Source: Promethearchaeota archaeon (GTDB lineage: Archaea > Asgardarchaeota > Heimdallarchaeia > Hodarchaeales > Hodarchaeaceae). Taken from it: DNA of 54,756 bases. A program made the position numbers and the translations under genes. A model generated the notes under the pieces. The model was not told the DNA's origin. It saw only the letters and a program-made list of their open reading frames with translations, and made no database searches. This document shows positions 2,843 to 54,756 of this stretch, piece after piece. Numbering within the stretch: position 1 is the first letter of the stretch; each line of letters opens with the position of its first letter. The stretch is from assembly GCA_048938105.1 (NCBI GenBank), contig JBHLMN010000029.1, positions 1-54,756 of the forward strand, in the 5' to 3' direction.

Positions 2843-2900
2843 GATAGGTCTGCTTAATTTCCACAGTTTTATTAAAACTAATCCTTGTGCGATTAGTGGC
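2843..2900 (-). repeat. partial 23S 3'-end/trailer repeat (modules C+D)
   Basis: gataggtctgcttaatttccacagtttt...cttgtgcgattagtggc vs master at 53915-53964. Confidence 0.8.
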
Positions 2901-3011
2901 AGCTCCTAAAATAAGACATGAATTAAACTAAGAAAAGGCAACTTTGGAGGGTAAGGATTTATTAGGGAGGTAGGACTGAAATGATTCGGTTAATTTAATT
3001 TTTAGTGAAAA

Positions 3012-3950
3012 ATGATGAAAAGATGGGAGAAAAAACCAGAACTTACAATATTTGCTATGCTAATTTCTTATTTAACAATTCAAGCGATTCTCAATATTCC
3101 TCTCTATTTTCTCATTCTTAAACCAATTTTTCCTCACATCTCGAATGAGTGGGAGATTTATCATATCATACTATCTGGATCACCAGTGGGAATGGTAATA
3201 TTGTTTAGTATAATAACACTTGTCGTTCAATTTTTCAGTAGTGTTTTGGTGTTTCGTAGATTTTCTAAATCTAATCAGTGGAATCCAAATGCGTTTCATT
3301 GGTTAGGAAGTTATTTCGTCTATTTTTGTGTAATGGGCTCACTAATTCCGGTAATAGGATTATATATTCCTGAATTCCAAGGGAACTTGGAATGGCTGTG
3401 GCTTTGGTTAATGTTAGGTAGCCTATCATGTCTCATTATACTCGCCTCCCTCTCTTTCATCGGATTAATGCTTTTTGCTTTTCCTACTTTTCTTACAATA
3501 TTCATGGATAATATAATAATTTTCTCCGAAAAAACAGGAAATCTCCTGGGAATTAACAAGGTTTTTGTGGGAGATTACATCCCAGCGGGAGGGATCTGGG
3601 TAATGATTCGTGTAAGTGTTCTCTTTAGTCCAATACTTCTGCTTTTTCCAGTTGCACTCTTCAAGATCAGTCAAAGATTCATAGAAAATATTTCAACAGG
3701 AAAGAAAAAAGAACGAAAATCACTCTGTAGTTATATGAGAGAAAATAAAGGAATTTTTGGCTATTTATCCATTACTACTGGTTATTGGACGGTTCTACCA
3801 ATATTATTAATGCTTTATTTTGTCGAGGAACATTCAACTGTGGAAACAATAGGTGGATCCATATTTCTTATAATAATAAGTTGTCTATGGGTTATACTTT
3901 TCTTCATTTTACCCTTTTTACTATGTTTGACAAAAAGGTACACTGAATAA
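3012..3950 (+). CDS. multi-pass membrane protein
   Basis: 312 aa, ~7-8 TM segments; shares HWxxxYxxYF with 4071..4919. Confidence 0.7.
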   Translation: MMKRWEKKPELTIFAMLISYLTIQAILNIPLYFLILKPIFPHISNEWEIYHIILSGSPVGMVILFSIITLVVQFFSSVLVFRRFSKSNQWNPNAFHWLGSYFVYFCVMGSLIPVIGLYIPEFQGNLEWLWLWLMLGSLSCLIILASLSFIGLMLFAFPTFLTIFMDNIIIFSEKTGNLLGINKVFVGDYIPAGGIWVMIRVSVLFSPILLLFPVALFKISQRFIENISTGKKKERKSLCSYMRENKGIFGYLSITTGYWTVLPILLMLYFVEEHSTVETIGGSIFLIIISCLWVILFFILPFLLCLTKRYTE

Positions 3951-4070
3951 CTCTATCATTCAGTATGAAGATAGCAAAAAAATAACCAAAGATCGTTCCA
4001 AGTAAAACACCTACAATAAAAGCAAGTTTCAGGCTTGATTTGATGTTATCAAAGGTTTGATCTAATGGAT

Positions 4071-4919
4071 TCATAATCCTCGATGATTATCTTGTGTGGA
4101 ACTTCGCTTGGCTAATATAACCCCAATATGATATAAGATAGCATAAAGAAAAGGTAAGAAGAGTATGGCAATCATGAAAAGCATACCCATCATGAAAACG
4201 AAACCAAAGAAAGCATCACTTCCACTTGAACCCATAGAAGAACCAATTGCCCCAAGTCCTGCAATGAATAATCCAAAAGAAACAATAAAGAAATTCAATG
4301 CTCCTAAAATGCCTATTCCAGCCAAAGGCCAAAGAAGAATGTTCTTTACCGAGGGATTTAGAATTTGAAGAGAGAGTACACTAAGACCGACGGTTAAAAA
4401 ATAGATAATATATCCCACGAACCAGTGTAAACCATTGGGTCTATCTAGACCAGTTTTAATCCACTTCCACCCAATGTAAATATTTACCACAATAGTCGAT
4501 AAACTAAAACCACAACCAATAAGCCAAACGAGGATAATATCATCACCAGAAAAAGTGGATAGATCTAATAAATCAGGTTTCATGAAAACCAAACAGAGAG
4601 CGAGGAATATATTGAGACCAAATTGGAGTAACAAGAAAAGGGTAGTGTAAAATAGAATTCGAGGATCTAAAGCAAGAAAAGAAGCAGTCAAGTGTTTAGA
4701 TTCAAGGATGAATACCATAAGAATTAGGGGGACTGCAGCTGCGCCACCAAAGATCAATAGTGGATTTATATATATTCCATCTTCGGAAGAATTAGTATTT
4801 AGCATTTCAGGAATATAAGGAAGTGCTAGGAGAGATAGGATGACAAGATAGCCTCCATACAAAATCAGAGCAATAATGACAAATTTATTCTTGACTTGGT
4901 CGGGAATTCTAGAAGACAA
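4071..4919 (-). CDS. multi-pass membrane protein
   Basis: 282 aa, ~7 TM segments. Confidence 0.7.
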   Translation of the reverse strand: MSSRIPDQVKNKFVIIALILYGGYLVILSLLALPYIPEMLNTNSSEDGIYINPLLIFGGAAAVPLILMVFILESKHLTASFLALDPRILFYTTLFLLLQFGLNIFLALCLVFMKPDLLDLSTFSGDDIILVWLIGCGFSLSTIVVNIYIGWKWIKTGLDRPNGLHWFVGYIIYFLTVGLSVLSLQILNPSVKNILLWPLAGIGILGALNFFIVSFGLFIAGLGAIGSSMGSSGSDAFFGFVFMMGMLFMIAILFLPFLYAILYHIGVILAKRSSTQDNHRGL

Positions 4920-5060
4920 GGGTCAGAATCCTCCAATTCGTATTATCCTTAGGATTTCAAAATTCAGATACACTCACCATTTCCTCTCATATATTCCTTT
5001 CTCTCTTTTCTCTAAGATAGGCTTCTTTAAGCAATGGTTAATAATTAGGGCCATCACTCA

Positions 5061-5094
5061 CAAAAAATCTCCGTGTGGATTCATCATGAAACTT
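5061..5094. repeat. 34-bp perfect direct repeat, copy 1 (upstream of fba)
   Basis: caaaaaatctccgtgtggattcatcatgaaactt identical to 6428-6461. Confidence 0.9.
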
Positions 5095-5228
5095 ACAATT
5101 TTGTAATTCATGCAATAATGTGAATCAAACATCATTAATATTCCCATTCTTAAGTAGTTGGGATTGATATCTATTGATGTAGCTTAGTCAGATAATAGAC
5201 TTTCAATTGATGGAGAGATTTTTATTTC

Positions 5229-5282
5229 CCGAAAATAAACGAAAAACGTACATACATCAGACCGACTGCTATCACATTGAAA
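5229..5282 (-). repeat. partial 23S-trailer repeat (module A)
   Basis: cgtacatacatcagaccgactgctatcacattga. Confidence 0.7.
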
Positions 5283-5388
5283 ATTTTTGGAAGTATGATC
5301 TTAAAGGATGTATCCTAGAGCTCTTCCTAAACAGATAATTCATTAACTTTGATCAAAAGGAAAAAATCCCCAAAAATAGAAAGGAACG

Positions 5389-6665: not shown

Positions 6666-6785
6666 CCGAAACGCACAAACAGCGTACAGACATCAGACCG
6701 AATGCCCATACATTGAAGATTGACACTCATGAAGCTGCCTGGCGATAGTGTTTGCCAAAAAGCTTAACTTCCACAGTTTTTTAGA
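6666..6785 (-). repeat. near-complete 23S-trailer repeat
   Basis: cagcgtacagacatcagaccgaatgccc...gaagctgcctggcgatag...ttaacttccacagtttt. Confidence 0.85.
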
Positions 6786-7520: not shown

Positions 7521-7638
7521 TAAAGGAGGGGAGATTGGGGGATCGTGAAACTTGGAAAAAGCTATTTCTCAAAATAAAAAAAGATGTATAGACATCAGAT
7601 CGTTTGCTTCAATTTCAGGGTATTTGGTCTGATATCTG
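7521..7638. repeat. ~95-bp repeat shared with 27301-27394, ending in module A followed by an inverted module A
   Basis: taaaggaggggagattgggggatcgtgaaacttggaaaaagct...gacatcaga..gtttgcttcaatttcag; 7607-7638 is the reverse complement of module A. Confidence 0.8.
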
Positions 7639-7726
7639 AAGATTTATTTCGTTTTTCTGGAATTTCAGAAGAGTAGGGACAAAGTACTACCAACACCTAC
7701 TATACTCCCAGTTTTTATTCAAGAAA

Positions 7727-8564: not shown

Positions 8565-8637
8565 CCGAACATAGAACCACAGCGTACAGACATCAGACCG
8601 CTCTTGCTTTAATTGAGGCTAACAACTTTCTAAGCTA
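8565..8637 (-). repeat. 23S-trailer repeat (A + degenerate B) overlapping the stop of 8630..9124
   Basis: tagaaccacagcgtacagacatcagaccg...aattgaggctaac. Confidence 0.8.
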
Positions 8638-9124
8638 TTTCCCTAAGCTTCTGTAAAATAACCCTAAGATCACTAAAATAATCAATCTGCTGATTTACAC
8701 CAGCTGATAGATAACCCTTCAGAGCTATCTGAACTGCTTCTTTCTGACTTATTAATGCTTTTGGGTGAAAGATAAATACAGAAGCATTCGGATTATGCTG
8801 AGAAAGGTGTTGTAGGGAGAGATCTAAAAAATATTTGGCTCGAGAAAGATCAGAGATGAGGATAGACTCTATAATGAAGACCATTGCTTTCACATAACTG
8901 AAAATCTCTTGCTGGACGAATTTTTCACTTTCAATTAATTCCAGAGATTCACTCTGACTCAAGGGGAATACCTTCTGTTGTTTCTTTCGTAACGATTCGA
9001 TCGGACTCAAGATTCGATTCAATAATTCAGAATTAGACTCGATCCTATCGTAATAAACCATCTTATTTGAAAATCCCAGAATAAGAATCCAATCTTCTAG
9101 AACTCCCATAATAATCGACTTCAT
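8630..9124 (-). CDS. degenerate Rag/Gtr-like small-GTPase-fold protein (no P-loop); paralog of 45735..46229
   Basis: IFSYVKAMVFII...AKYFLDLSLQHLSQHNPNASVFIF resembles the Rag-like core also seen in 16894..17472. Confidence 0.55.
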   Translation of the reverse strand: MKSIIMGVLEDWILILGFSNKMVYYDRIESNSELLNRILSPIESLRKKQQKVFPLSQSESLELIESEKFVQQEIFSYVKAMVFIIESILISDLSRAKYFLDLSLQHLSQHNPNASVFIFHPKALISQKEAVQIALKGYLSAGVNQQIDYFSDLRVILQKLREIA

Positions 9125-9165: not shown

Positions 9166-9702
9166 TCAGACATTTTCTTCTTCACATTTAAGTACTTTTA
9201 ATACCAAATCGTGTAAAATGGTTTCAATAGTTTCTTTATCCGTTGGTTTGATCTCGTAATAAGATAAACCCAGCTCTTCAGCTAATGCCATCCCCTCTCC
9301 TTTCATTATTGTTTCGGAATTAGTAATAAATCCAACTAAAGCAATAGGAAAGGCAGCTTGAGGATGATGTTTTTTTAATTCTCTATACCAATCTCTCACA
9401 GCGTGAAAGGAGTTTTGGTCAACCTTTTCAAATGTAATTATTGCAGCAGAAGCACCCCGAAAATAACTCGGACGGAGCTTATCAAAAAACTCCTGTCCTA
9501 TGGTATCTACGAGAATGAGGTTAACCTCATTGTTGTTTACTTTAATCTGTTTAGTTATAATATCAACTCCCAGAGTGGGTAAATAGTTCGTTGTAAACTT
9601 CCCTTCTGCAAATCTCCTGATAAGTGAGGTTTTAAACTCAGTAGATCCCAGAACGCAAATTTTCAATAATTCTTCATACATTCCTTTCTTCTGGACAGAC
9701 AT
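9166..9702 (-). CDS. Rab-like small GTPase with degenerate G1/G4
   Basis: KICVLG, YLPTLGVD, DTIGQEFFDKLRPSYFRGASAAIITF; G1 lacks GKS, no NKxD. Confidence 0.85.
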   Translation of the reverse strand: MSVQKKGMYEELLKICVLGSTEFKTSLIRRFAEGKFTTNYLPTLGVDIITKQIKVNNNEVNLILVDTIGQEFFDKLRPSYFRGASAAIITFEKVDQNSFHAVRDWYRELKKHHPQAAFPIALVGFITNSETIMKGEGMALAEELGLSYYEIKPTDKETIETILHDLVLKVLKCEEENV

Positions 9703-9783
9703 CAGACCGAACGCTCTGTAATTGAAGATTTACACTCCTTAAACTACCTGACGATAGTTCCGCTTAATTTCCACACGGTTAAC
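9693..9783 (-). repeat. near-complete 23S-trailer repeat supplying the ATG of 9166..9702
   Basis: ggacagacatcagaccgaacg...ctgacgatagttccgcttaatttccacacggtta. Confidence 0.9.
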
Positions 9784-9805
9784 ACATTTCAGTATAACTC
9801 ATTTT

Positions 9806-10480
9806 TCATATTATATTGTTAATCTCTTTTAAAACCTCTTCGAGAGACTTCCCAGTTAATTCTTTATAGCGCCTGCCAACAATTTCAAGAGATGTCTTTA
9901 AATAGGTTAAATATTGTTGCTTTTCTGCTTCCGATCGAATTAATCGACCATCATAAAGATTTTTTCTCTCTAGTGATTCAATCACGCGTAGTCGTTTAAA
10001 TATCTCGTCTTTGAGAGAAGTAATGACTTCTTTCTTACTCAAACGAGATGGTTTCACCTCAGTCGTGAGAGATTCAATACTAACTTTACTCACGCCTTCG
10101 ATTTTCGCCAGTTCATATGTTAGCTGCTCTTGAGAGATTCTCAAGTCAGAAAGATCGATGTAAACCTCATAAGTACAACGATCTTGCATGAAACACACCC
10201 CTGTGCTATAAAGGGTTCTTGTTTTGTACCTGATTAAAATTATACCAAACTCTTGTAAAAAATCGGGAGACAATTCACCAATTTCTATAGTAGCCTTGAG
10301 AACGTCAGGACTTCGGGCAGGAATGATTTGAATGACTTTGGTCGAGGGAGTAAGGATCATCAAAGCATACTTTACCCCTCCATAGATGTCATCCTTAATG
10401 GGGAGTGCTACAGGATATTTCCCCAGAAGGTCAAAGGGTTCATGAAGCTGAATCATTTTTGCGATGGTAAGAGGAAACAT
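9806..10480 (-). CDS. hypothetical protein with probable ACT-like domain and C-terminal helical region
   Basis: LKATIEIGELSPDFLQE...YEVYID...LAKIEGVSKVSIE beta-alpha-beta pattern. Confidence 0.5.
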   Translation of the reverse strand: MFPLTIAKMIQLHEPFDLLGKYPVALPIKDDIYGGVKYALMILTPSTKVIQIIPARSPDVLKATIEIGELSPDFLQEFGIILIRYKTRTLYSTGVCFMQDRCTYEVYIDLSDLRISQEQLTYELAKIEGVSKVSIESLTTEVKPSRLSKKEVITSLKDEIFKRLRVIESLERKNLYDGRLIRSEAEKQQYLTYLKTSLEIVGRRYKELTGKSLEEVLKEINNII

Positions 10481-10616: not shown

Positions 10617-10749
10617 CCGAAAATGGAAAAATAGCGGACAGACATCAGACCGAACGCCTTGATATTGAAATAAACGATTCTTTAAACTACATGACGATAG
10701 ATTTTTGGAAAAATCTTAATTTCCACAGTTTTTCTTAAAACTAGCCCTT
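10617..10749 (-). repeat. near-complete 23S-trailer repeat
   Basis: gcggacagacatcagaccgaacgcc...tgacgatagatttttggaaaaatcttaatttccacagtttttcttaaaactagccctt. Confidence 0.9.
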
Positions 10750-11072: not shown

Positions 11073-11630
11073 TCAGACCATTGCTTGTTTAGCGGTGGAT
11101 TTATTCCCAGGTAGATTATGGGTTATCAAAGAAAGAAGGATTTTTCTAAAGCCTTTGAAATCTTCGGATTTTAGACCATAATAAAAATCAGGCGACCCTT
11201 GTTCACTCTGGATCGATTCCTCAATAATTAGGGAATCATTTGTATCTTGGATTTCTATAAATGCAACGGGAATATTGGGATCACGATTGATAAACCGAAA
11301 ATAGTGGTAGAACGCTCTTGCAGACTCAAAAGATTCAGCATCATTCTTTGAAAACAGAATAAGGGCCCCATTGGAACGAAAATAGTGCTGAACCATTTTA
11401 TCGAAGAATCCCTGGCCAATGGGTTGGACTAATATCAATTTCACCCAGCACTCATCAATAAATACCCTTAAAGTAGAAATACTGATAGAAATAGATTCAA
11501 AAGTATGATTAGTGGTCTGACCGTGATGGCTTTGAACCAGTTGGCGAATAAGTTGGCCTACTAATTCATCAGGATGACCTAATACGGAAATCCTAATAAT
11601 AAACTCGTTTTTGTGGCTATTAGGGTTCAC
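11073..11630 (-). CDS. highly degenerate Rab-like GTPase-fold protein
   Basis: IRISVLG, VKLILVQPIGQGFFDK...YFRSNGALILFSK; stop lies in a tcagacc module-A remnant. Confidence 0.65.
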   Translation of the reverse strand: MNPNSHKNEFIIRISVLGHPDELVGQLIRQLVQSHHGQTTNHTFESISISISTLRVFIDECWVKLILVQPIGQGFFDKMVQHYFRSNGALILFSKNDAESFESARAFYHYFRFINRDPNIPVAFIEIQDTNDSLIIEESIQSEQGSPDFYYGLKSEDFKGFRKILLSLITHNLPGNKSTAKQAMV

Positions 11631-12447: not shown

Positions 12448-12578
12448 AAAACGTAAAAAAACATATAGAAGTCAGACCGATTGCCCTCTCCTTGAAAATA
12501 GTTGAAATTATTGACTCCTGAAGCCCCCTGACGATAGCGTGTGGGAAAAAGTTTAATTTCCACACGGTTAGCCCTTGT
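12448..12578 (-). repeat. near-complete 23S-trailer repeat (insertion variant)
   Basis: tcagaccgattgccct...ttgaaattattgactcctgaagccccctgacgatag...ttaatttccacacggttagcccttgt. Confidence 0.9.
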
Positions 12579-40204: not shown

Positions 40205-40212
40205 GGGATTCT

Positions 40213-42624: not shown

Positions 42625-42658
42625 TTATCTCTCCACAATCCACTTCGATTTATTCACT

Positions 42659-43547: not shown

Positions 43548-43646
43548 AACTGAAGCTAACGACTCCTTAAGCCAACTGACGATATTTTTCTAAAAATACT
43601 TAATTTCCACAGTTTTCTTAAAATTAGCCCGTGTGCGATTAGTAGG
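43530..43646 (-). repeat. near-complete 23S-trailer repeat with 23S end (D)
   Basis: tcagaccgaaagtcctgaaactgaagctaacgactcc...ttaatttccacag...ttagcccgtgtgcgattagt. Confidence 0.9.
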
Positions 43647-43711
43647 AAAGGATCATACAACCATAATATTTTTAATACTGTACTACATGTATATACATAA
43701 GGGGTGTTATA

Positions 43712-43969: not shown

Positions 43970-44424
43970 AACAGATACAAAAAATAGTCGTGGATGCAAG
44001 TCTAGTGGTAAAGTGGTTCATTAGCGAAAAATACAGTAATCTAGCTCTAGAAATTAGAGACCATTTTGTTGATGGGCAAATAGAGTTGTATGCGCCTAAT
44101 TTATTGCATTATGAGGTTCTGAATGCACTAAAATACAGTAATTTATTCTCTCGAGAGAACCTAGCTGATGCGGTCACCTCATTAGAAAATTATGGGATTA
44201 TTCAATTACCACTAAATGGGGAATATGCACAAAAAACAATGCATTTAGCAGTGGATCATAACATCTCCATCTATGATGCAGCATATGTGAGTTTAACCGA
44301 TGTCATGGGAATTTGCGCATATTCAGCAGATAAGAAATTAGTGGATACAGTGCATAAAGACTATGGAAAGTCTTTCTTTTTCATTACAACCCTAGAGGAG
44401 AAGAATGAAAAACCTGACGCCTAA
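43966..44424 (+). CDS. vapC: VapC PIN-domain toxin
   Basis: VVDASLVVKWF, YEVLNAL, SIYDAAYV, SADKKL. Confidence 0.9.
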   Translation: MKQIQKIVVDASLVVKWFISEKYSNLALEIRDHFVDGQIELYAPNLLHYEVLNALKYSNLFSRENLADAVTSLENYGIIQLPLNGEYAQKTMHLAVDHNISIYDAAYVSLTDVMGICAYSADKKLVDTVHKDYGKSFFFITTLEEKNEKPDA

Positions 44425-44477
44425 AAAGAATAATTTCCACAAATTTTGAAAAAATAAGCCCTTGTGCGATTAATGGG
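44413..44477 (-). repeat. partial 23S-trailer repeat (C+D)
   Basis: cctgacg...taatttccacaaattttgaaaaaataagcccttgtgcgatta. Confidence 0.8.
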
Positions 44478-44613
44478 AGGCCTGTTATCAAAAGTAATAT
44501 TACTAGCAACTCTTATTAGTTTTCAATCTCACAATGTTGTAATAATTTTAGTCAGCTGGATAAAACAAAAGAGAAAAGGAGATTGTTAATACGAATAAAA
44601 AGGGGAAAATCAA

Positions 44614-45582
44614 GTGAAATTATTCAAACTATCACGAGCTTTATCCACAACAACATGGTTATCTTTGATATTTTCATGTTTAATCCTTTCTTCGATTGCT
44701 GTAAATAGCGACAGTCGAAGCTGGAATGTAGGAAAAACCTATTCCTATAAAGGATTAACAGAAGTAAAGGAAGATGGAGAACATCATCAAAGAGAAGAAA
44801 AGTTTCAGTTTCGGATTGAGGAGATCAAAGAAAAAACAATTGTCACGTATGTTGATATGCTTACTTCAAAGGGAAGGTATAATCGCACACTTGAATTTCA
44901 GAATGATATTGGTTTCTTTAGAGGGGTGCGGCCATGCGAACTGAAAGTCCTCCCAGCTGACTGTGTAACCCCTCCCTTCCCTGGAATAGTTTACACTGAT
45001 ATTCTCTTGAGGTATGGTATAGATTCTGATATATATGGTATATATGATATGCCCATGCCTTTATTTATAAATCCGGAATGGGATCTGATCAATTCATATC
45101 TGAAAAATATTGGATTCAACCCAGATACGTATATATACCGATCTCAGACAGACTATCAGACCAAGGTGACTTTGGGTGAATTCCTTAATCAGGCAAGCTC
45201 ATACGAAATTATGGGAAAAACGAATATCACAGAGGCCTTAGATCTTTTCACTAATTCAACTCGGGAATGGTGGTGGGAGTTTCATTTTAACAACATTGTA
45301 CGAGTACGAAAGCAAGGTGCCCCAATCCATGCAGATCAACCCAGGTACAAGACCTATGACCTGTCAGTGAATATCAAATATTCAGAAGGAGGGATCCTAG
45401 AGACATTTCAAGCTGAGAGGGGTTATAGTTATGAGAATGAAAGTTTCTTCTCTTTCTCCAAAGACTTTACAATAGATCAACCCTCACTAGGTATCCCAGG
45501 ATTTGATTTTTTCAGTGTCACAATGGCTGTGCTTCTTACTACAGGATTAATAGTTCAAAGAAGAAGAAGATCTCTTTATTAA
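44614..45582 (+). CDS. secreted/cell-surface protein with PGF-like C-terminal anchor
   Basis: Signal peptide; IPGF-TM-RRRR tail. Confidence 0.75.
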   Translation: MKLFKLSRALSTTTWLSLIFSCLILSSIAVNSDSRSWNVGKTYSYKGLTEVKEDGEHHQREEKFQFRIEEIKEKTIVTYVDMLTSKGRYNRTLEFQNDIGFFRGVRPCELKVLPADCVTPPFPGIVYTDILLRYGIDSDIYGIYDMPMPLFINPEWDLINSYLKNIGFNPDTYIYRSQTDYQTKVTLGEFLNQASSYEIMGKTNITEALDLFTNSTREWWWEFHFNNIVRVRKQGAPIHADQPRYKTYDLSVNIKYSEGGILETFQAERGYSYENESFFSFSKDFTIDQPSLGIPGFDFFSVTMAVLLTTGLIVQRRRRSLY

Positions 45583-45742
45583 GAAAATTAGCCCTTGTGC
45601 GATTAGTAGGATCTAGGAGGAAGTTTTTTCACATGAGAAATTAAGAGCGATTTTAGAAAATTAATATCCTCTGAAACGCAACAACAGCAGACAGAAATCA
45701 GACCGCTCCTGCTTTAATTGAAGCTAACAACATTTTAAGCTA
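45583..45742 (-). repeat. two partial 23S-trailer repeats (D at 45583-45610; A+degenerate B at 45672-45742)
   Basis: aaattagcccttgtgcgattagt; cagcagacagaaatcagaccg...aattgaagctaac. Confidence 0.8.
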
Positions 45743-46229
45743 TTTCCCTAAGCTTTTGTAAAATTTCTTTAACATTACTGAAATAATCAATCTGCTGAGT
45801 TACACCCGTTGATAGATAGCCTTTCAGAGTTTTCTGAATTACCTCTTTCTGACTTATTGATACCTGATTTGCTTTTGGGTGAAAGATAAAAACAGAAGCA
45901 TTCGGACTATACTGAGAAAGGCATTGTAGGGAGAGATCTAAACAATATTTTGCTCGAGAAAGATCGGAGATGATGATTGACTCTATAATGAAGACTAATG
46001 CTTTCACATAACTAAAAATCTCTCGTTTAACAAATTTCTCACTTTCAAGCAATTCCAGAGATTCACTATGACTTAATGGATAGAGCTTCCTTCTTAATAA
46101 GTCGATCCGTCTCAAGATCCGATTTATTAATTCAGAATTAGCCTCGATCCTATCGTAATAAACCATCTTTTCTGAAAATCCCAGAATAAGAATTCTATCT
46201 TCTTTAACTCCCATAACAATCAGCTTCAT
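45735..46229 (-). CDS. degenerate Rag/Gtr-like fold protein; paralog of 8630..9124
   Basis: Very similar sequence and same repeat context. Confidence 0.6.
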   Translation of the reverse strand: MKLIVMGVKEDRILILGFSEKMVYYDRIEANSELINRILRRIDLLRRKLYPLSHSESLELLESEKFVKREIFSYVKALVFIIESIIISDLSRAKYCLDLSLQCLSQYSPNASVFIFHPKANQVSISQKEVIQKTLKGYLSTGVTQQIDYFSNVKEILQKLREIA

Positions 46230-46234
46230 GGTTC

Positions 46235-46358
46235 CCGAAAATAACGGAACAGCGTACAGACATCAGACTGAATGCCCTGAAATTGAAAATAATTGAAATT
46301 ATTGACTCCTTAAGCTATCTGACGATAGGACTACTTAATTTCCACAGTATTTTAAAAC
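46235..46358 (-). repeat. near-complete 23S-trailer repeat attached to a 23S fragment
   Basis: cagcgtacagacatcagactgaatgccctg...gacgataggactacttaatttccacag. Confidence 0.95.
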
Positions 46359-46678
46359 TAGCCCTTGTGCGATTAGTGGCCGCTCGCTGAGCATGTCGGT
46401 CGAAACCTCCACGCTTGCATGACGGCTCTATCAACGGGATCTTCTATCCCAGCACTCGTTCACTCGCTCACGGTTACCGTCGCCAGCCCCCGTGTCATAC
46501 TGACGCGAGCAAAGCGGATCTGTCTTTTCGAGGGGCGCTTCGTACTTAGATGCATTCAGCACTTATCGCGTGGCGGTCGGGCGATACCCTTCCGGATAAC
46601 CCGTAGACTTGAGGCGCCTACATCCCGTTCCTCTTGTAATGAGAGCGTGTTCCTCTCACAGATCCAACACGTCCTATA
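46359..46678 (-). pseudogene. 23S rRNA 3'-terminal fragment (~320 nt), decayed
   Basis: Aligns to 53943-54270; 7-nt deletion and a mutated sarcin-ricin loop; ends at cgtcctata. Confidence 0.95.
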
Positions 46679-46684: not shown

Positions 46685-47563
46685 TTAACTTACTGTCAAA
46701 CTTTCCAAACTCGGATAAATTTGTTGTCCTTCAATGTATCTTTCGTGGAAGTCCGTTGGAACAAAAATATTCCATCTTTCATCACGATACACTTTCTCAA
46801 GTACATTACGATTTACTAAATATACAGGAGAACCATCATTAACCCAATCTCGGAGTTCATTTAAAAGATCCATGGAATTGGACAGTGTTCCAACAGATGA
46901 AAAGACTTCAAGTAGGTATCCAACTCTTCCAACTAATGATTTCTTCTTGAAAAGATTTAATTCCAACAATTCAATGACCTCATTGAGATCATTCGGCCTG
47001 AATTCCATGGTTAGTAAATACAGTGCACGAATCATTTCAGCCCAACCTCCAACAAGTTGAGGTCGATTGATGATTTCAATCAGAGTTCTAGCTGGGGAGC
47101 TTACAATGACTTCTTCTTCTTGATATTTCACCTTCCGCAGCCCATAGATGAAATCACTAGACATTGTGGCATTAATAGTATATTTAGGGTTACTTTCAGG
47201 CAAATTAAATGAGCTAAAGTAATCTTGCTTTTGTACAGATACAATATAACTAGAATAGATAACTGGAGCTGCTCCCCACATCTCTAATGCTGATGTGTAA
47301 CCAAGGTAGTAAGGATCACGGAGCCGTGACGCCATAATGATCATATCAGGCAATGAATCAGGATTTTCAACATCAACAATTGAATATAAACCTTTTCGAT
47401 GTCGAAGGATGTGACCATGCTGCAATAGGTAACGTAGATAAGTTTTATATAAATAACGGCTATTATCGATTCCTAATTGGTCTTTAGCAAATCGTTGTAG
47501 CTCTTTTACGGTCACAGATTTTCTTTTTTGGATATACGATAGTAATACTAACAAATTTTTCAT
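46685..47563 (-). CDS. AbiEi-like type IV TA antitoxin / wHTH regulator
   Basis: N-terminal wHTH (GHILRHRKGLYSI), YLGYTSALEMWG, SSPARTLIE, RVGYLLE, DERWNI. Confidence 0.8.
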   Translation of the reverse strand: MKNLLVLLSYIQKRKSVTVKELQRFAKDQLGIDNSRYLYKTYLRYLLQHGHILRHRKGLYSIVDVENPDSLPDMIIMASRLRDPYYLGYTSALEMWGAAPVIYSSYIVSVQKQDYFSSFNLPESNPKYTINATMSSDFIYGLRKVKYQEEEVIVSSPARTLIEIINRPQLVGGWAEMIRALYLLTMEFRPNDLNEVIELLELNLFKKKSLVGRVGYLLEVFSSVGTLSNSMDLLNELRDWVNDGSPVYLVNRNVLEKVYRDERWNIFVPTDFHERYIEGQQIYPSLESLTVS

Positions 47564-47670
47564 TTATTGCACTCAGTTAAATTAATATCCAATATCTTTA
47601 AAAAGTTTTACCTTGTACTGCAACAATCAAAAATATCAAATTGAATATGACCTTAAATTTTCAATAATAT

Positions 47671-48612
47671 TTGGAACTATCTTTAATGAGACTAAGTATG
47701 AAATTAGAAAATGAAGGATATAATAACGCAATAATTCAGAAAGTATATCGAATAGCTGATGTATTAGAGTTAATCAGCAAGAATTATTTTTTGAAAAATC
47801 GTTTGGCTTTTACTGGTGGCACTGCTTTAAATTTTGTCATTTTTCCAAAAATTGAAAGACTTTCTGTTGATTTAGATTTTGATTTTCGTGAAATTGATTC
47901 AAAAAATGACTGGGGAAAAACAAGGGATATGGTTGATTCCAATATAAAAGGGATTTTGAGAGATCTAGAGTATGAAGATGATGACATCAGGATTGATGCA
48001 AAATATCCTCTAACACGCTTTATAGTGAAATATGAGCTGAGAACATCATTTAACATTGAAATAGGGTATTTAAATCGATATTCACTTTTTACTTCAGATG
48101 AAACTAAGAATTTTATTCATCCGAAGACTGGAAAAGCGTTTAAAATACTTATTCCAAGAATAGAAGAAATTTCAGCAGGAAAGTGTTCAGCATTAATTTC
48201 ACGGAGAATTCCTAGAGATCTCTTTGACACAGCAATAATCGCCAAACTACAATTTAGTAGAAAATTGCTGCGAAAAGCTCTAATATTGAAAAATATGATG
48301 AATCTAAGCTATAATATTACTACTCTTAATTTTTCGACTCATCTCGGGAATATAAGACTTGATGATAACCTTAAAGTTGTATTAGGGGATTTTTTTTCAA
48401 AGGAAACCTTTAGAAATTATCGGAAAACAGCTATCGATTTCTTGAATCAGTTGCAGATGGAATTTACAGAGAAGGAAAAGGATTGTCTTTCAGCCTTTAT
48501 AAATGACCAGGAATTGAATATTGGTTTATTAGGAAAGAGAGAGATGTTCCATCCACAAATTGCCAAGCATCCTAATATTCTTTGGTCTTTAGAAAAAATG
48601 AAAGGAACTTAA
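47671..48612 (+). CDS. AbiEii-family nucleotidyltransferase toxin
   Basis: LAFTGGTALN...RLSVDLDF, EEISAGKCSALISRRIPRDLFD. Confidence 0.9.
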   Translation: MELSLMRLSMKLENEGYNNAIIQKVYRIADVLELISKNYFLKNRLAFTGGTALNFVIFPKIERLSVDLDFDFREIDSKNDWGKTRDMVDSNIKGILRDLEYEDDDIRIDAKYPLTRFIVKYELRTSFNIEIGYLNRYSLFTSDETKNFIHPKTGKAFKILIPRIEEISAGKCSALISRRIPRDLFDTAIIAKLQFSRKLLRKALILKNMMNLSYNITTLNFSTHLGNIRLDDNLKVVLGDFFSKETFRNYRKTAIDFLNQLQMEFTEKEKDCLSAFINDQELNIGLLGKREMFHPQIAKHPNILWSLEKMKGT

Positions 48613-48652: not shown

Positions 48653-49192
48653 CTAATCCCTGTCCCAACACGCGAGAGTTCGGATTATGTTTTGCACAAC
48701 TTTCCGAGCTAAATTGTGAAAAATTCCCTCAATGGTTGCTTTATCGGTGGGTGTGGTCTCATAATAAGGAACATTCAGCTCCTCGGCTAAACCTTGACCT
48801 TCAAACGATGTTATTTCCTCTGAGTCGGAAATAAATCCGACTAAAGCAATAGGAAAGGTGGCTTGGGGAAGATGTTTTTTTAATTCGTTAAACCAATCTT
48901 TCACATTGTGAAAGGAGTTTCTGTTAACCTTTTCAAACGTAATAATTGCAGCAGAAGCACCACGAAAATAACTCGAACGGAGCTTGCCAAAAAACTCCTG
49001 TCCTATGGTATCTACAAGAACTAGGTGAACATTGAAGTCGTTAACTTTAATCTGTTTAGTTGTAATGTCAACTCCCAGAGTAGGCAAATGACTTGTTGTA
49101 AATTTGCCTCCAACAAATGTATTAACCATTTTTGTTTTCAACTCCCGAGCTGATCCCATAATGCAGATTTTTATAAAATACTCATCAGGCAT
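48653..49192 (-). CDS. Rab-like small GTPase with chimeric C-terminus
   Basis: HLPTLGVD, DTIGQEFFGKLRSSYFRGASAAII; tail QNIIRTLACW matches 39824-39855. Confidence 0.85.
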   Translation of the reverse strand: MPDEYFIKICIMGSARELKTKMVNTFVGGKFTTSHLPTLGVDITTKQIKVNDFNVHLVLVDTIGQEFFGKLRSSYFRGASAAIITFEKVNRNSFHNVKDWFNELKKHLPQATFPIALVGFISDSEEITSFEGQGLAEELNVPYYETTPTDKATIEGIFHNLARKVVQNIIRTLACWDRD

Positions 49193-49286
49193 TTATTTAT
49201 CCCCACACTTCCATCTTCTCTAACGGGTTCCACTTTTAATAGATTATTAAATTGTTATTGTGAGATTCCTCCGATCCACGCAATAA

Positions 49287-49310
49287 CACACAGACACCAG
49301 ACCGACTGCC
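49287..49310 (-). repeat. partial 23S-trailer repeat (module A)
   Basis: cacagacaccagaccgactgccc. Confidence 0.6.
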
Positions 49311-49501
49311 CGGAAACCGAATCTCCTTGGAAAAATTGTTTTATTTTCGGAAAAAAAATGAAATACAGGATCGTTAATTCAAAATTAGATACTTTCATAA
49401 TAATGATTAGTGTAAGTAAAAAGATACATCCTGGGAATAATATAAATCGTAATATACTGAAAGGAAGAAAAAATCCAGTCCTAGCCAAAATGTATGGAAC
49501 T

Positions 49502-50706: not shown

Positions 50707-50801
50707 CCAGACATCAGACCGAACGCCCTGTAATTGAAGCTAACGACTCCTGAAGCTACCTGACGATAGGACTACTTAATTTCCACACGGTTAGCCCTTG
50801 T
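50707..50801 (-). repeat. near-complete 23S-trailer repeat
   Basis: cagacatcagaccgaacgccctg...ctgacgataggactacttaatttccacacggttagcccttgt. Confidence 0.95.
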
Positions 50802-51041
50802 ACAGTTAGGCCAGGAGGACTTGGTTTGTTATTTTTTAACACTAATTAAAATATAAAAGGATAACCACGCACGAAATGAAGGGAAATGAAAACAAATGAA
50901 ATTATCCAGAAAAGGCATACAGACCTTAGAAAAAGCCATCCTTCCAGGTTTTGGGGTTTCTCTCTTCAAGCATTTCTGTACCTCGGTTGGCTTTATATAT
51001 TCAAAAAGGACATTCTTTGGACAAAGAAGGTAGAATAAAAA

Positions 51042-52016
51042 ATGCTGACTGAAGAAAAATACTGGGATCAACTAGCACCAACATGGGACAAGAAAATTAC
51101 TTCTAAACGAAATCCTCATTATCATTATTATCATACGATTGATTTGCTAGTCATTCAGCTTCTACAGGAAACCAAGGCAAAGAAAGCTCTAGAAATAGGC
51201 TGTGGTACGGCTGGCTGTGCCATTAATGTTCTCAAAACTCTGAAAAGGGACAATATTCATATAACGGGGATTGATATCTCAAAAAAGATGATAAAGTTTG
51301 GAAGAGAAAAGATCAAGAAGGCGAATCTAGAAGATAAAATTTCACTAGAGGTGGGGAATGCTACTGATCTTCCATTCCAAGATAAAGAATTTGATATGGT
51401 CTTTAGTCGAGGAGGAGTTCTCAGTTATACGACAGAACCTTCAAAACTTCTGCAACAAATAAAGAGAGTCCTTTGTATTGGAGGGGTTATTGGTTTAGAT
51501 GTAATTCCAAAACCTCCAAAAGGCAAAGATTATTACATTGGGAAAATTAGTGACAGTCCTTCTAATAAAGAAGTATTTCAGGTAGAGTCAACAAGTCTTA
51601 TGTATGAAGAATTCTATACAGATGGTTTTGTTCAAGTTGCTCGCAAATACCATGTAAAATCTGACGCAAATCTATACAATGAATTACAGACACTTTTTCA
51701 GAAACTCCCTTCGAGCTTACCAGGAATTCTACAACCTCCTATACATCTAAAAGAAGCCCAATTGATCAGTGATAGAAGTGTTACTCTCTATAGTATTAAT
51801 AAAATACAGGAAAAAATGACTGAAGTAGGATTTCAGATAACTGATGTCTATGGTACTGGATATGCAAATTTAATGAGCAAAAACAGCGAAATATTCGAAT
51901 TTGTTACTGCCAATCGTGATAAATTCAGTCGGATAGAAATAATTCTTCATAAAGTACTCTGTCTTGATTCTGCATCTATGCTTTTCATAACAGGAAAAAA
52001 ATGTGAGAAGTGTTAA
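51042..52016 (+). CDS. class I SAM-dependent methyltransferase
   Basis: ALEIGCGTAG, GIDISKKMI, GNATDLPFQDKEFD, RVLCIGG. Confidence 0.9.
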   Translation: MLTEEKYWDQLAPTWDKKITSKRNPHYHYYHTIDLLVIQLLQETKAKKALEIGCGTAGCAINVLKTLKRDNIHITGIDISKKMIKFGREKIKKANLEDKISLEVGNATDLPFQDKEFDMVFSRGGVLSYTTEPSKLLQQIKRVLCIGGVIGLDVIPKPPKGKDYYIGKISDSPSNKEVFQVESTSLMYEEFYTDGFVQVARKYHVKSDANLYNELQTLFQKLPSSLPGILQPPIHLKEAQLISDRSVTLYSINKIQEKMTEVGFQITDVYGTGYANLMSKNSEIFEFVTANRDKFSRIEIILHKVLCLDSASMLFITGKKCEKC

Positions 52017-52051
52017 GTTCAAGCATAAAAAGAATCTTTGAAAATAATCCT

Positions 52052-52178
52052 CTGAAACGCTAGAAAAAAAGCGTATAGACATCAGACCGAACGCCCTGAC
52101 ATTGAAGATAATTGAGAGTATTGACTCCTGAAGCCAACTGACGATAAATTTTAGGAAAAATCTTAATTTCCACAATTT
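52052..52178 (-). repeat. near-complete 23S-trailer repeat (insertion variant)
   Basis: gcgtatagacatcagaccgaacgccctg...ttgactcctgaagccaactgacgata...ttaatttccacaa. Confidence 0.95.
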
Positions 52179-52196
52179 GTAAAAAAGGAGCTACAA

Positions 52197-52799
52197 TTAA
52201 GTTTGGCCAGTTTTTATAGCTAATACTCTTGCCGCTAAATCCTCAAAGATTTTCGCAATAGTTTCTTTGTCAGTTAGTTTGGTTTCATAATAGAAGAACT
52301 TCAACTCCTCGGCTAAATTCTGTCCCTCTAAGGTTGTTATTTCCTCTGAGTTGGTGATGAAACCAATTAAAAAAATAGGAATAACAACATCTGAGGATTC
52401 ATATTCTTCTACTTCTTCTTCTGGAAATAAGCGAGGATGTCTTCGCATTATCAGCAGTGATTTCGTTTTATTGGGTTTAAGGTGACGTTTAACTTCCATA
52501 TAGAAATCTTTAGCTGCTTTAAAGGAGTTCCTATCGCCCTTATCAAAAGTAATGATAGCAGCAGAAGCACCTTGATAGCTTGGTTGTTCTAAAGCATCTA
52601 CAAGAGCTAGTTTAACCTTATTGTTGTTTACTCTAATCTGTTTAGTTGTAATGTCAATTCCCAGAGTGGGTAAATAGTCTGTTGTAAATTTCTCTCCAGC
52701 AAAAGTGCGAACCATTCTTGTTTTTAACTCTCGAGCTGCCCCCATAATGCAGATTTTCATGAAATATTCATCAGGCATTGTCTTATTCCCACATATCAA
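52197..52799 (-). CDS. Rab-like small GTPase, degenerate, with internal insertion
   Basis: KICIMG, YLPTLGID, YQGASAAIITFD; likely start MPDEY at 52778. Confidence 0.85.
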   Translation of the reverse strand: MICGNKTMPDEYFMKICIMGAARELKTRMVRTFAGEKFTTDYLPTLGIDITTKQIRVNNNKVKLALVDALEQPSYQGASAAIITFDKGDRNSFKAAKDFYMEVKRHLKPNKTKSLLIMRRHPRLFPEEEVEEYESSDVVIPIFLIGFITNSEEITTLEGQNLAEELKFFYYETKLTDKETIAKIFEDLAARVLAIKTGQT

Positions 52800-52884
52800 C
52801 CTTCTCCAAATAATCAGACGATTAATATGTTACAATGTTTTTATATTTTGGGAAATTCAAAGCTAAAGTATTATTTTCCTCCCT

Positions 52885-53022
52885 CCGAAACAACGAAAAT
52901 AGCATACAGACATCAGACCGAGTGGTCGCTACTTGAAGCTAACGACTCCTTAAAGCTAACTGACGAAAGGATTACTCAATTTCCACAATTTTTGAGAAAA
53001 TTAGCCCGTGTGCGATTAGTGG
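52885..53022 (-). repeat. near-complete 23S-trailer repeat with 23S end (D)
   Basis: cagacatcagaccga...gaagctaacgactcc...aatttccacaatt...ttagcccgtgtgcgattagtgg. Confidence 0.95.
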
Positions 53023-53027
53023 GAGGA

Positions 53028-53702
53028 TTACTCATTATTTATTTGTAAGCTATTACCACAATGAATACAATATTTTTGATGAGCTTCATTCTTCGTTCCA
53101 CAATTAGTGCAAAAATGATAGGTAGAAGTAGCTGGGTGAGGAAGTGAATTATGATAAGAGGGTGATATTTGAGATATGTATGGATCAAGAGGAGCTTGTT
53201 GTTGCGATTGTTGATATAAACGCAATCTTTGTTGTTTATAGGTATTAATCAAAAAAATATAGCTATTTTGATTGGAAAAAACAATAATGGTAGAAACTAT
53301 AATCATCAAAGATGAAAAAGCTCCAAGAATAAGGCCTATTTCAAAATTTAATGGAATAGCGAATCCCATTTCTTGTATAGAATACTCATAATAATACTGA
53401 TATTGGAGGTACACTATAAACCATGAAAAAAGTACTGAAAGCGTACTTATTACTAAACACACCTTGGGATTTCCCCCAAGACTCCCATTGAGATTTATTC
53501 CAGCAATTAAGGAGAGTATTGCAGATAAAGCAAGGGGGCCCCAAACTAATAATCCTAAGTCAAATGCATTAAGAGAAATTGTAATTAAGAAAGTAACACT
53601 AAAATAAGGAAAAAGAGCACTTAATCCGATTCCTATCCCTCCAATGATGGCGAGAATACTCGCAGGACGTAATTTTCCTTTTGCATCCATGATATCTATC
53701 AA
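53028..53702 (-). CDS. membrane protein with C-terminal zinc ribbon
   Basis: 4 TMs, FCTNCG...YCIHCG. Confidence 0.75.
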   Translation of the reverse strand: MIDIMDAKGKLRPASILAIIGGIGIGLSALFPYFSVTFLITISLNAFDLGLLVWGPLALSAILSLIAGINLNGSLGGNPKVCLVISTLSVLFSWFIVYLQYQYYYEYSIQEMGFAIPLNFEIGLILGAFSSLMIIVSTIIVFSNQNSYIFLINTYKQQRLRLYQQSQQQAPLDPYISQISPSYHNSLPHPATSTYHFCTNCGTKNEAHQKYCIHCGNSLQINNE

Positions 53703-53842
53703 AATTTTTCCCTCTTACTTCTTACCTCCTATAAAAAAATAGGATTTTGTGGAAGAGGGCCTTTTTCTTCATAAAAAGCTTTGTGTAATTTCACAACCTT
53801 AATAAAAAAGCTCAAACATGTTTCGAAATCTCATCGCATAAA

Positions 53843-53942
53843 ATAGAACCACAACGGACAGACATCAGACCGAACGCCCTGAAATCGAAGCTACTGACTC
53901 CTTAAGCCAACTGACGATAGGTCCGCAAAATTTCCACACGGT
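53843..53942 (-). repeat. master copy: 3' trailer directly downstream of the 23S rRNA gene
   Basis: Contiguous with the 23S 3' end; contains modules A, B and C. Confidence 0.9.

Positions 53943-54756
<814 letters not shown>

Follow-up and report, generated by a model that had tools for sequence, protein, structure and literature searches.

In Dehalococcoides, the single-copy essential stable-RNA gene ssrA is followed, within 100 kb, by tandem genomic islands, each bounded by a 20 bp direct repeat of the 3' end of the gene. The insertion point inside the gene is fixed and the cargo is strain-specific; 16 of 31 islands carry an integration module with the serine recombinase DsiB, and some units without integration genes have been proposed to be cis-mobilizable (PMC3146451). 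Among tycheposons and other integrative elements stacked at tRNA genes, newly arriving elements push older ones further into the island and partial copies of the target gene mark old events; the cargo is adaptive or defensive, tycheposons carry tyrosine recombinases and replication modules, and fragmented integrases remain in the islands (bioRxiv 10.1101/2020.12.28.424599). Integrons and integrase-less cassette arrays (CALINs), including archaeal integrons, form long arrays of small cassettes separated by co-oriented sites, with toxin-antitoxin cassettes within the array and cassettes shared between species in different orders. The SAR11 hypervariable region HVR2, between the 23S and 5S rRNA genes, is a conserved location for a strain-variable island of about 50 genes bounded by rRNA genes, whose content includes methyltransferases, membrane proteins and paralogs and which is thought to turn over by recombination in its conserved flanks (PMC3448164). 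SCC elements insert serially at the 3' end of the conserved gene rlmH (orfX) in staphylococci and form composite tandem arrays bounded by short direct repeats of about 15-20 bp; the Ccr serine recombinases are known and often present, although some members lack recombinase genes. SCC elements are also discussed in PMC3146451.

Here we describe an island of about 66 kb behind the 23S rRNA gene (rrl) of an Asgard (Hodarchaeales) archaeon, in which about 35 small gene packets are separated by spare copies of the tail of the rRNA gene. The window, i.e. the whole stretch of DNA analysed, is a contig of 54,756 nt from a metagenome-assembled genome (MAG) of 5.85 Mb. Rfam places the 3' part of the 23S rRNA gene at its right end on the minus strand, cut by the contig end. 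An iterated nhmmer search with positions 53830-53975 found 29-31 copies of the 23S 3' end plus trailer on this contig, of which 30 are co-oriented with rrl and one short copy is inverted (binomial p = 3e-8). Elsewhere in the genome there are five copies on contig C18 (135-146 kb), single copies on contigs C42 and C53, and a complementary 30-mer on contig C9. An exact 77-nt overlap continues the array into C18, giving 36 copies, so that 36 of 39 genome-wide hits lie in one 66-kb stretch. Spacing between copies is 0.5-8.6 kb with a median of 1.1 kb.

The initial annotation had described a four-module repeat recurring about 30 times, nearly always in the rRNA orientation, between positions 2843 and 53965, and this observation is confirmed. 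Its modules A-D are visible in the alignment, position 2843 is the start of the first copy and 53965 is the inner edge of the resident copy. The statement that copies lie almost always between genes is nearly right: five copies overlap the last 10-60 nt of a GTPase-like ORF, and there only module A aligns convincingly. Two copies which run about 330 nt into 23S sequence had not been singled out. The cargo is as described, with 12 Ras/Rag-like proteins without a P-loop, beta-helix surface proteins, AbiE and PIN toxin-antitoxin pairs, methyltransferases, one HNH gene and a class II aldolase; no integrase is present. The components of the island are listed below, in window coordinates; "HMM" gives positions in the repeat profile, and class-1 and class-2 denote inner edges about 30 nt and about 330 nt, respectively, from the 23S 3' end.

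53937-54756, minus strand: 3' part of the resident 23S rRNA gene, cut by the contig end (Rfam RF02540, 328 bits, model positions 2545-2987); the 5' half lies on C9, where C9:1-1450 holds model positions 1-1452
54314-54685, minus strand: 372-nt intron in the 23S gene, with no long ORF; the Rfam match spans 820 nt for 443 model positions, and a contig of sequencing run X5 joins 54313 to 54686, an intron-less allele
53842-53965, minus strand: resident tail (nhmmer 118 bits), the last ~29 nt of 23S (module D) plus a ~95-nt trailer (modules C, B, A); the modules of the initial annotation are its plus-strand reading
53028-53702, minus strand: cassette next to rrl with one 224-aa membrane protein with a C-terminal zinc ribbon, not a recombinase
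52895-53024, minus strand: complete orphan tail (HMM 7-125), class-1 edge after GATTAGTGG+GAG
52063-52178, minus strand: orphan tail (HMM 6-102)
50708-50809, minus strand: orphan tail (HMM 19-120), predicted still to pair with this genome's 23S leader (-47 kcal/mol)
49282-49325, minus strand: tail remnant (module A only) directly upstream of the Ras-like gene 48653-49192
46685-48612, no strand assigned: AbiEi/AbiEii toxin-antitoxin cassette, 91% identical to one on contig C144 of G012, a genome of another species, where it has other neighbours
46245-46678, minus strand: long orphan, full tail plus ~320 nt of 23S (class-2 edge), 94% identical to the resident gene (Rfam 161 bits, model positions 2721-2973)
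45675-45767, minus strand: orphan tail; module A is convincing, the rest overlaps the end of the gene 45735-46229
45585-45609, minus strand: module-D-only fragment with a class-1 edge, followed by a nearly empty cassette
44429-44478, minus strand: partial tail (modules C-D, HMM 86-125) 5 nt after the PIN gene stop
43664-44424, plus strand: PIN toxin-antitoxin cassette, 85% identical to one in the relative G015; the shared block ends 18 and 30 nt from the flanking tails
43520-43646, minus strand: orphan tail (HMM 13-124), class-1 edge
42663-42758, minus strand: orphan tail (HMM 2-87) followed by a Shine-Dalgarno sequence and a GTPase-like gene
41994-42107, minus strand: orphan tail (HMM 2-105) followed by a Shine-Dalgarno sequence and a GTPase-like gene
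41408-41488, minus strand: orphan tail (module A) followed by a Shine-Dalgarno sequence and a GTPase-like gene; part of a tandem triplet of tail-plus-GTPase units
40816-40901, minus strand: orphan tail (module A), overlapping the end of gene 40839-41381
39724-40683, plus strand: two-gene cassette (wHTH protein plus a 156-aa protein), 88% identical to contig C333 of G012
39632-39693, minus strand: partial tail (HMM 51-103)
37658-37767, minus strand: orphan tail (HMM 18-109)
36699-36769, minus strand: partial tail (HMM 48-109)
31746-31846, minus strand: orphan tail (HMM 18-109)
27631-28081, minus strand: long orphan, full tail plus ~330 nt of 23S (class-2 edge), 94% identical to the resident gene (Rfam 191 bits); abuts the stop codon of the 1177-aa beta-helix gene
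26327-26352, minus strand: module-D-only fragment
25778-25864, minus strand: two abutting partial tails (HMM 35-80 and 9-46) with no cargo between them
25139-25239, minus strand: orphan tail 96% identical to the resident tail, with the best predicted pairing with the 23S leader (-53 kcal/mol)
21799-21918, minus strand: orphan tail (HMM 2-103)
21159-21222, minus strand: partial tail (modules C-D) directly after the stop of gene 20630-21157, class-1 edge
12701-21157, plus strand: largest cassette (8.6 kb, about 12 genes) with beta-helix, TPR, Rag-like GTPase, HNH endonuclease (17691-18293) and YdjM
12452-12578, minus strand: orphan tail (HMM 5-112)
10622-10748, minus strand: orphan tail (HMM 2-109)
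9693-9786, minus strand: orphan tail (HMM 16-109)
8571-8659, minus strand: orphan tail (module A), overlapping the end of gene 8630-9124
7588-7640, plus strand: the only inverted copy (hit at 7600-7640), a module-A fragment facing its own complement (small palindrome)
6670-6780, minus strand: orphan tail (HMM 2-103), followed by a GTPase 5' remnant
5239-5285, minus strand: partial tail (HMM 7-53)
2843-2901, minus strand: partial tail (modules C-D), class-1 edge, the first copy in the window
1-77, no strand assigned: exact overlap with the right end of C18, where five more tails lie

The repeat is the whole functional 3' end of the rRNA operon: the end of 23S, the 3' strand of the 23S processing stem, and a strand that pairs with the leader upstream of 16S. 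In folding predictions the trailer pairs with the 23S leader on C9 at -48 kcal/mol (shuffles -28 +/- 3.8), and module A pairs with the 16S leader at C9:4095-4124 at -47 kcal/mol (shuffles -25 +/- 4). Several orphans are predicted to pair as well or better. The inner edges of the orphans are fixed at two points inside 23S. About 36 short orphans end 3-6 nt after GATTAGTGG and are followed by unrelated sequence, and about 28 long fragments in 13 genomes end at 23S position 321-338 from the 3' end, the nine flanks checked being unrelated. Orphans in this genome carry CAG or GAG after GATTAGTGG, which are the 23S alleles of other species, whereas the resident gene has CCG.

In 27 loci of 12 genomes of the genus, all 118 copies are co-oriented within each locus. 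Multi-copy 23S ends occur in 15 of 20 genomes of this genus, while the genomes with a match in the other genera of the class show one full-length gene each. All relatives are fragmented MAGs, and only one other array, in G005, is seen attached to a true 23S gene. Single cassettes are shared between species at 78-93% identity; the shared blocks end within tens of nt of the tails, 24 of 27 keep their orientation relative to the tails, and the neighbours and the cargo order differ. The distal flank of the island is syntenic with that of the relative G003, so the island grew between a conserved flank and rrl. No tyrosine or serine recombinase and no LAGLIDADG gene was found on any array contig searched in this genome or in five relatives.

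The initial annotation had interpreted the array as an integron-like system in which the 23S 3' end acts as a reusable attachment or homology anchor for serial gene capture, with either an enzyme in trans or ordinary homologous recombination doing the work. This interpretation is partly supported. The repeat derives from the real 23S end, is concentrated in one polarised locus anchored on rrl and is not a dispersed MITE. Cargo order is not conserved among relatives while single cassettes are shared, no integrase is encoded in cis in this genome or on the array contigs of five relatives, and even depth and independent contigs across several repeats argue against a chimeric assembly. Membership in the integron family is not supported: there is no IntI, the sites are not imperfect palindromes and do not fold like attC sites, and cargo lies on both strands. 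The sites here also derive from a host gene and restore it, and the entry point lies inside an rRNA gene. Compared with the ssrA islands, the repeat is 125-460 bp and includes the whole functional trailer, the units are much smaller (median 1.1 kb), none of about 150 units seen in 12 genomes carries a recombinase, and the target is the 23S rRNA gene of an archaeon. Neither tyrosine recombinase and replication genes of the tycheposon kind nor their remnants were found here. For HVR2 neither orphan copies of the rRNA end nor a cassette structure is reported (PMC3448164), and the target of the SCC elements is a protein gene. We found no published description of the system reported here.

Four alternatives to site-specific capture were weighed. 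Homologous recombination alone, in which the tails are portable homology, circles of one tail plus cargo arise by recombination between two tails and re-enter at any tail by a single crossover, and no site-specific enzyme exists, appears unlikely as a full account, although several observations agree with it: no recombinase is encoded in cis, the tandem triplet of tail-plus-GTPase units at 40816-42758 looks like unequal crossing-over, the nearest relative of a tail lies in the same genome 47 times of 85 against 14.5 expected, and cassettes are reordered between species while keeping their orientation. This model propagates existing cassettes but cannot create new ones, whereas about 36 different cargo sequences abut the same inner edge within 3-4 nt and a second fixed edge exists 300 nt further in, which requires repeated precise events. 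In addition, the tails are only about 70% identical to each other with short perfect blocks of 10-18 nt, a poor substrate for RadA-type recombination. Repair after a site-specific double-strand break (intronless homing) is somewhat less likely still. Here a homing-type endonuclease would cut 23S rDNA at the two sites, the upstream end would copy a donor's tail and downstream cargo, and the recipient's own tail, starting at the cut, would be kept as the orphan. This would explain fixed edges with a few nt of play, the absence of an integrase and the strict polarity, and the rRNA operon of this genome does host homing-type elements, namely a 16S intron with a LAGLIDADG ORF at C9:2500-2730 and the 372-nt 23S intron. 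However, no free-standing LAGLIDADG gene lies on any 23S-tail array contig in this genome or in five relatives, the only HNH gene in the window lies 36 kb from rrl inside a large cassette, and neither junction coincides with the intron site, the class-2 edge lying 40-50 nt from it. The resident gene also keeps both target sequences intact, so it would remain cleavable.

That the repeat is instead a functional RNA or regulatory module (terminator, 5' leader with ribosome-binding site, or decoy for the rRNA leaders) which spread with a GTPase gene family by local duplication is very doubtful. Module A is followed at a fixed distance by GGAGG and the start of GTPase-like genes in at least seven copies, the conserved blocks persist in many orphans, and several orphans could still pair with the rRNA leaders. 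Against this, most cargo is unrelated (73 ORFs, few families), cassettes are shared with other species in other contexts, old syntenic orphans decay (C18:135389), and the tails have no predicted structure of their own (z-scores of 0 or higher). An assembly artefact, stitching the rrl flanks of several strains together through the shared repeat, is the most remote possibility. The MAG has 7% contamination and is larger than its relatives, and assemblies of relatives break at tails. But the tails are only 70-90% alike, too divergent to collapse, and independent Logan contigs of the source run bridge 42682-46388 and 50771-53916 across five tails at an even depth of 15-22 along the 20 kb examined. 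A second sample carries the same cassettes at 99-100% identity, and polarised arrays recur in 12 genomes and in three contigs of another metagenome.

The best reading, held with moderate confidence, is an accretion island anchored on the 3' end of the single 16S-23S rRNA operon and built by serial, site-specific insertion of cassettes. In this view small cassettes of one to about twelve genes enter at the two fixed points inside the 23S gene, each carrying its own copy of everything downstream of that point: the rest of the mature 23S, the 3' strand of the processing stem, and the strand that closes the whole operon against the 16S leader. The copy would end at about the operon's terminator, followed in many copies by a ribosome-binding site for the first cargo gene. 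Fixed edges at two positions, together with the identity of the repeat with the functional pre-rRNA 3' end, favour such insertion with tail replacement over plain homologous recombination as the founding event. We regard the anatomy, the fixed junctions, the predicted RNA pairing, the genus-wide polarity and cassette sharing, and the absence in cis of the recombinase and endonuclease families searched for as shown by the analysis, while the direction of growth, the circular or linear form of the incoming DNA and the enzyme are inferred. No enzyme was identified and no circular or empty-site form was seen, the contig joints observed being explained by other tail copies. Tail quality does not fall significantly with distance from rrl (rho = -0.30, p = 0.12), so a strict newest-next-to-rrl order is not shown. 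Some partial tails lack the trailer's distal end (modules C-D only, at 2843, 21159 and 44429), which simple tail displacement does not predict, so that later deletions or insertions into orphans are needed. Tails flanking the same cargo in two species are mostly no more alike than random tails, leaving it unresolved which tail travels with which cargo.

On this reading, insertion would keep the rRNA gene intact and push the previous tail downstream as an orphan, and repetition would give a polarised stack between rrl and the conserved distal flank. Recombination between tails would afterwards duplicate, delete and reorder cassettes and move them between species, and the enzyme for the founding insertions, not being encoded in the array, would have to act in trans. 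The end of an rRNA operon thus appears to serve as a reusable landing site for new genes without any recognisable integrase.

The window is a whole contig (C8) of a 5.85-Mb Hodarchaeales-type Asgard MAG, and its right end holds the 3' part of a 23S rRNA gene (rrl) that is interrupted by an intron, the limits of which are given by an intron-less allele in another sediment metagenome (run X5). BLASTN and iterated nhmmer searches with the 23S end plus trailer (53830-53975) find 29-31 copies on the contig, of which thirty run in the direction of the rRNA gene and one short copy is inverted (p = 3e-8). In the rest of the genome there are only five copies near the right end of contig C18, two single intergenic copies on contigs C42 and C53, and one 30-mer on contig C9 in the opposite sense. 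The last 77 nt of C18 are identical to the first 77 nt of C8, and the array therefore runs from C18:135389 to C8:53965, about 66 kb with 36 copies. The principal features are as follows.

53937-54756, minus strand: 3' part of the 23S rRNA gene
54314-54685: 372-nt intron in the 23S gene, without a long ORF
27631-28081: copy extending about 330 nt into 23S sequence
46245-46678: copy extending about 330 nt into 23S sequence
7588-7640: the only inverted tail fragment, which faces a direct module-A fragment and forms a small palindrome that mimics the leader-trailer helix
5389-6411: class II fructose-bisphosphate aldolase, a core metabolic enzyme that sits as cargo inside the array
17691-18293: HNH gene, deep in the largest cassette
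40816-42758: triplet of tail-plus-GTPase units
8630-9124, 9166-9702, 9806-10480, 11073-11630, 16894-17472, 21258-21734, 40839-41381, 41431-41967, 42127-42624, 45735-46229, 48653-49192 and 52197-52799: twelve Ras- or Rag-like cargo proteins

The observation made in the initial annotation, that the 23S 3' end and trailer recur as a polarised array, holds, and its coordinates and its description of four modules (A to D) are correct. Its interpretation was only partly supported, and membership in the integron family was not supported, as set out below. A dispersed repeat of the MITE type was to be expected in both orientations throughout the genome, but 36 of 39 hits lie in one locus with one inverted copy, and no terminal inverted repeats were seen in the alignment. 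The two single copies outside the array (C42:74712-74785 and C53:85392-85456) are of a variant type (GAGATTAGACC...) that is also seen flanking a shared cassette in the relatives G009 and G011. An isolated 107-nt 23S fragment (C52:482647-482753), which ends at the second of the two junctions described below, lies far from the array and has no trailer modules nearby.

The other half of the operon lies on C9, with 23S positions 1-1452 at C9:1-1450 and the 16S rRNA gene at C9:1695-3919. The 16S gene spans 2225 nt for a 1478-position model and contains an intron with a 232-aa LAGLIDADG ORF (C9:2500-2730), presumably an intron-encoded homing endonuclease. Modules B and C of the trailer are complementary to the 23S leader in the 16S-23S spacer (-48 kcal/mol; shuffles -28 +/- 3.8). 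Module A (within 53842-53885) is complementary to a 30-nt stretch 175 nt upstream of 16S at C9:4095-4124 (-47 kcal/mol; shuffles -25 +/- 4), which implies a helix that closes the whole 16S-23S primary transcript in addition to the separate 23S stem. By the established archaeal pathway pre-rRNAs are excised from leader-trailer processing stems, and the repeat, as inferred from these predicted pairings, is thus the complete functional 3' end of the operon, consisting of the last nucleotides of mature 23S, the 3' strand of the 23S stem and the 3' strand of an operon-closing helix. It stops where the function of the operon stops. Most orphan copies then carry GGAGG, and in at least seven cases the start of a GTPase-like gene follows at a fixed distance. 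Several orphans pair with the leaders of this genome as well as or better than the resident tail, while others do not, and on their own the tails have no structure. The linker between modules C and D (e.g. 27720-27750 and 52985-53005) comes in two types: the short type is CCACACGGTTAGCC, as in the resident tail, whereas the other has an A/T palindrome (AATTTT-N-AAAATT) with T-runs on both strands and might act as a bidirectional terminator for cargo.

Across this genome and 20 loci of relatives, about 36 short orphans end 3-6 nt after GATTAGTGG, some 30 nt before the 23S 3' end (class-1 edge), and continue with unrelated sequence, usually the stop codon of a cargo gene within 5-10 nt. The few retained nucleotides (CAG, CAGC, CAGCCA, GAG) match the 23S alleles of other species of the genus, whereas the resident gene has CCG. 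A second class of about 28 fragments in 13 genomes ends at position 321-338 from the 3' end (class-2 edge); the nine of these that were checked are followed by unrelated sequence. This point is 40-50 nt from the intron site and not at it. Many different cargos abutting the same nucleotide positions call for repeated precise events, which is the main argument against recombination between tails as the only process.

The repeat occurs in 17 of 20 other genomes of the genus and in none of 20 genomes of other genera. Multi-copy 23S ends are found in 15 of 20 genomes of the genus, and where the other genera of the class gave a match, it was one gene that runs on past the junction. In 27 loci of 12 genomes all 118 copies are co-oriented within their locus. 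In one relative (contig C44 of G005) the true 23S gene is followed by a tail, a 3.6-kb cassette and an orphan. Single cassettes are shared between species at 78-93% nucleotide identity, the shared blocks end within tens of nucleotides of the tails, 24 of 27 keep their orientation relative to the tails, and the neighbours differ. Examples are the AbiE pair (91%, relative G012), a PIN pair (85%, relative G015) and a two-gene unit (88%, G012). The order is reshuffled relative to G011 and partly collinear with the relative G003, which also shares the distal flank, including a luciferase-like monooxygenase. The island therefore sits at a conserved place, between that flank and rrl, and its content turns over. 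The relatives G009 and G015 looked like closed genomes but are N-joined scaffolds. A scan of metagenomes returned mostly chance 16-mer hits, and the three real loci are again co-oriented arrays without new information.

The twelve Ras- or Rag-like cargo proteins all lack a canonical P-loop (no GxxxxGK[ST]), and several read G-S/A-x-x-E-L-K-T instead; they are a family of probable pseudo-GTPases expanding inside the array. A Pfam scan of 50 ORFs of the window found no recombinase or transposase domain and hence no integron integrase (IntI). A six-frame search with PF00589 gave three hits in the genome, none of them on C8 or C18, and likewise none on the array contigs of five relatives. In searches with PF00589, PF16795 and PF00239 together with searches for LAGLIDADG domains, the three tyrosine recombinases of the genome, its four serine-recombinase hits and its LAGLIDADG domains (mostly inteins) all lie elsewhere, and the genome has no SSV-type integrase. 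Five array-rich relatives have no tyrosine or serine recombinase and no LAGLIDADG gene on any array contig, and three of them have no serine recombinase at all; with this genome, no LAGLIDADG_3 hit was obtained on array contigs in six genomes. The single HNH gene of the window lies 36 kb from rrl. The second tyrosine recombinase of the genus (C56:201681) has an uninformative neighbourhood. No viral contig in IMG/VR carries a tail, the one 16-mer hit being chance. Dif/Xer-like 28-bp sites are not in this window, where AACGTTGG and TTTTRCGACMT occur at or below chance. A 518-aa protein family (C18:141305-142861, equal to 13305-14861 of the extracted locus L032; C18:125076-126620; and relatives) recurs in six tail arrays of five genomes, always in the same orientation relative to the tails and only 34-54% identical between species, and was considered as a candidate enzyme. 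It has no Pfam hit, and its predicted fold is a tandem Lrp/AsnC-like wHTH plus RAM domain (NirDL-like) behind a helical N-terminus, so that it is probably a DNA-binding protein and not a recombinase. An enzyme, if it exists, would therefore act in trans.

We favour, with only slightly better than even confidence, serial site-specific insertion at two points in 23S; this mechanism is inferred. In this view the incoming DNA carries a replacement tail plus cargo, the previous tail is displaced and decays, and recombination between tails then gives tandem duplication (as in the tail-plus-GTPase triplet), deletions, partial tails and exchange of blocks between species. Some findings are not explained by it. 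Tail quality does not fall significantly with distance from rrl (rho = -0.30, p = 0.12), and some fragments keep only modules C-D. When the flanking tails of shared cargo were compared to see which is co-inherited, mostly neither was, and fast decay of orphans and recombination at the edges both fit this. Segment-wise correlation of tail similarity breaks near HMM position 63, but this may reflect lineage-specific divergence of module A rather than a crossover hotspot, because several relatives' tails match the model only from about position 50. In the assembled contigs of the sequencing runs no circle or empty site was seen, and joints between tails cannot be read as excision products because several match other tail copies of the genome, for example the C18:145939 tail.

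Among the alternatives, recombination alone appears unlikely in view of the precise edges, and repair of endonuclease cuts is considered slightly less likely still. Insertion driven by a homing endonuclease would fit units that carry a replacement copy of the end of the target gene and displace the original, a feature that the tails do show, but apart from the distant HNH gene no endonuclease gene was found in or beside the units in the LAGLIDADG_3 searches. A regulatory or RNA module spreading by duplication is improbable, and an assembly artefact is very improbable, since the depth is even along the 20 kb examined, contigs bridge five tails, and a second sample holds the same cassettes. A more far-reaching reading, which we regard as possible but doubtful, is that Hodarchaeales possess a general gene-capture mechanism of a so far unknown enzymatic kind, which inserts small cassettes at fixed points near the ends of essential genes, here the 23S rRNA gene, each cassette carrying a working replacement of the gene's end. 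The result would be integron-sized gene libraries without integrases or attC sites.

The layout works like tandem islands at tRNA or tmRNA genes, with an intact target gene followed by same-direction repeats of its 3' end and a fixed insertion point within the gene, but no tyrosine or serine recombinase or its remnants was found in the units. The closest case is that of the Dehalococcoides ssrA islands, with 20-bp repeats and a serine recombinase in half of the units (PMC3146451), and Tycheposon stacks are also similar. The array resembles integrons only in being a polarised cassette array: there is no IntI, and four tails folded as DNA on both strands give z-scores from -0.26 to +1.37 against shuffles, unlike attC sites, which are imperfect palindromes that fold as single-stranded hairpins. 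From the ssrA islands, the Tycheposon stacks and integrons it differs in that the target is an archaeal 23S rRNA gene, the repeat is long and functionally complete, the units are small, and no recombinase occurs in about 150 units. The HVR2 region of SAR11 shows that rRNA genes can bound a variable island, but without orphan tails (PMC3448164). Literature searches for an rRNA-anchored cassette array in Asgard archaea found no description of this system. The present array is particularly long and is attached to rrl, and what is new is the leader pairing of the tail, the two fixed junctions, the foreign alleles at the junctions, and the negative searches for enzymes.

Gene flow into Asgard archaea bears on how the archaeal ancestor of eukaryotes assembled its gene repertoire, and the routes of that flow are poorly known. 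This locus shows a concrete and testable route, namely a 66-kb, fast-changing library of accessory genes hung on the end of the only rRNA operon, with a cargo that includes many Ras/Rag-like proteins, surface proteins, toxin-antitoxin pairs and methyltransferases, and which in this view is built from units that must each supply a working pre-rRNA 3' end. It predicts two defined DNA target sequences for a so far unknown enzyme, and it explains why rRNA operons break Hodarchaeales assemblies. It also suggests that the rRNA tail itself is exchanged between species, which matters for rRNA-based phylogeny of the last few hundred bases of 23S.
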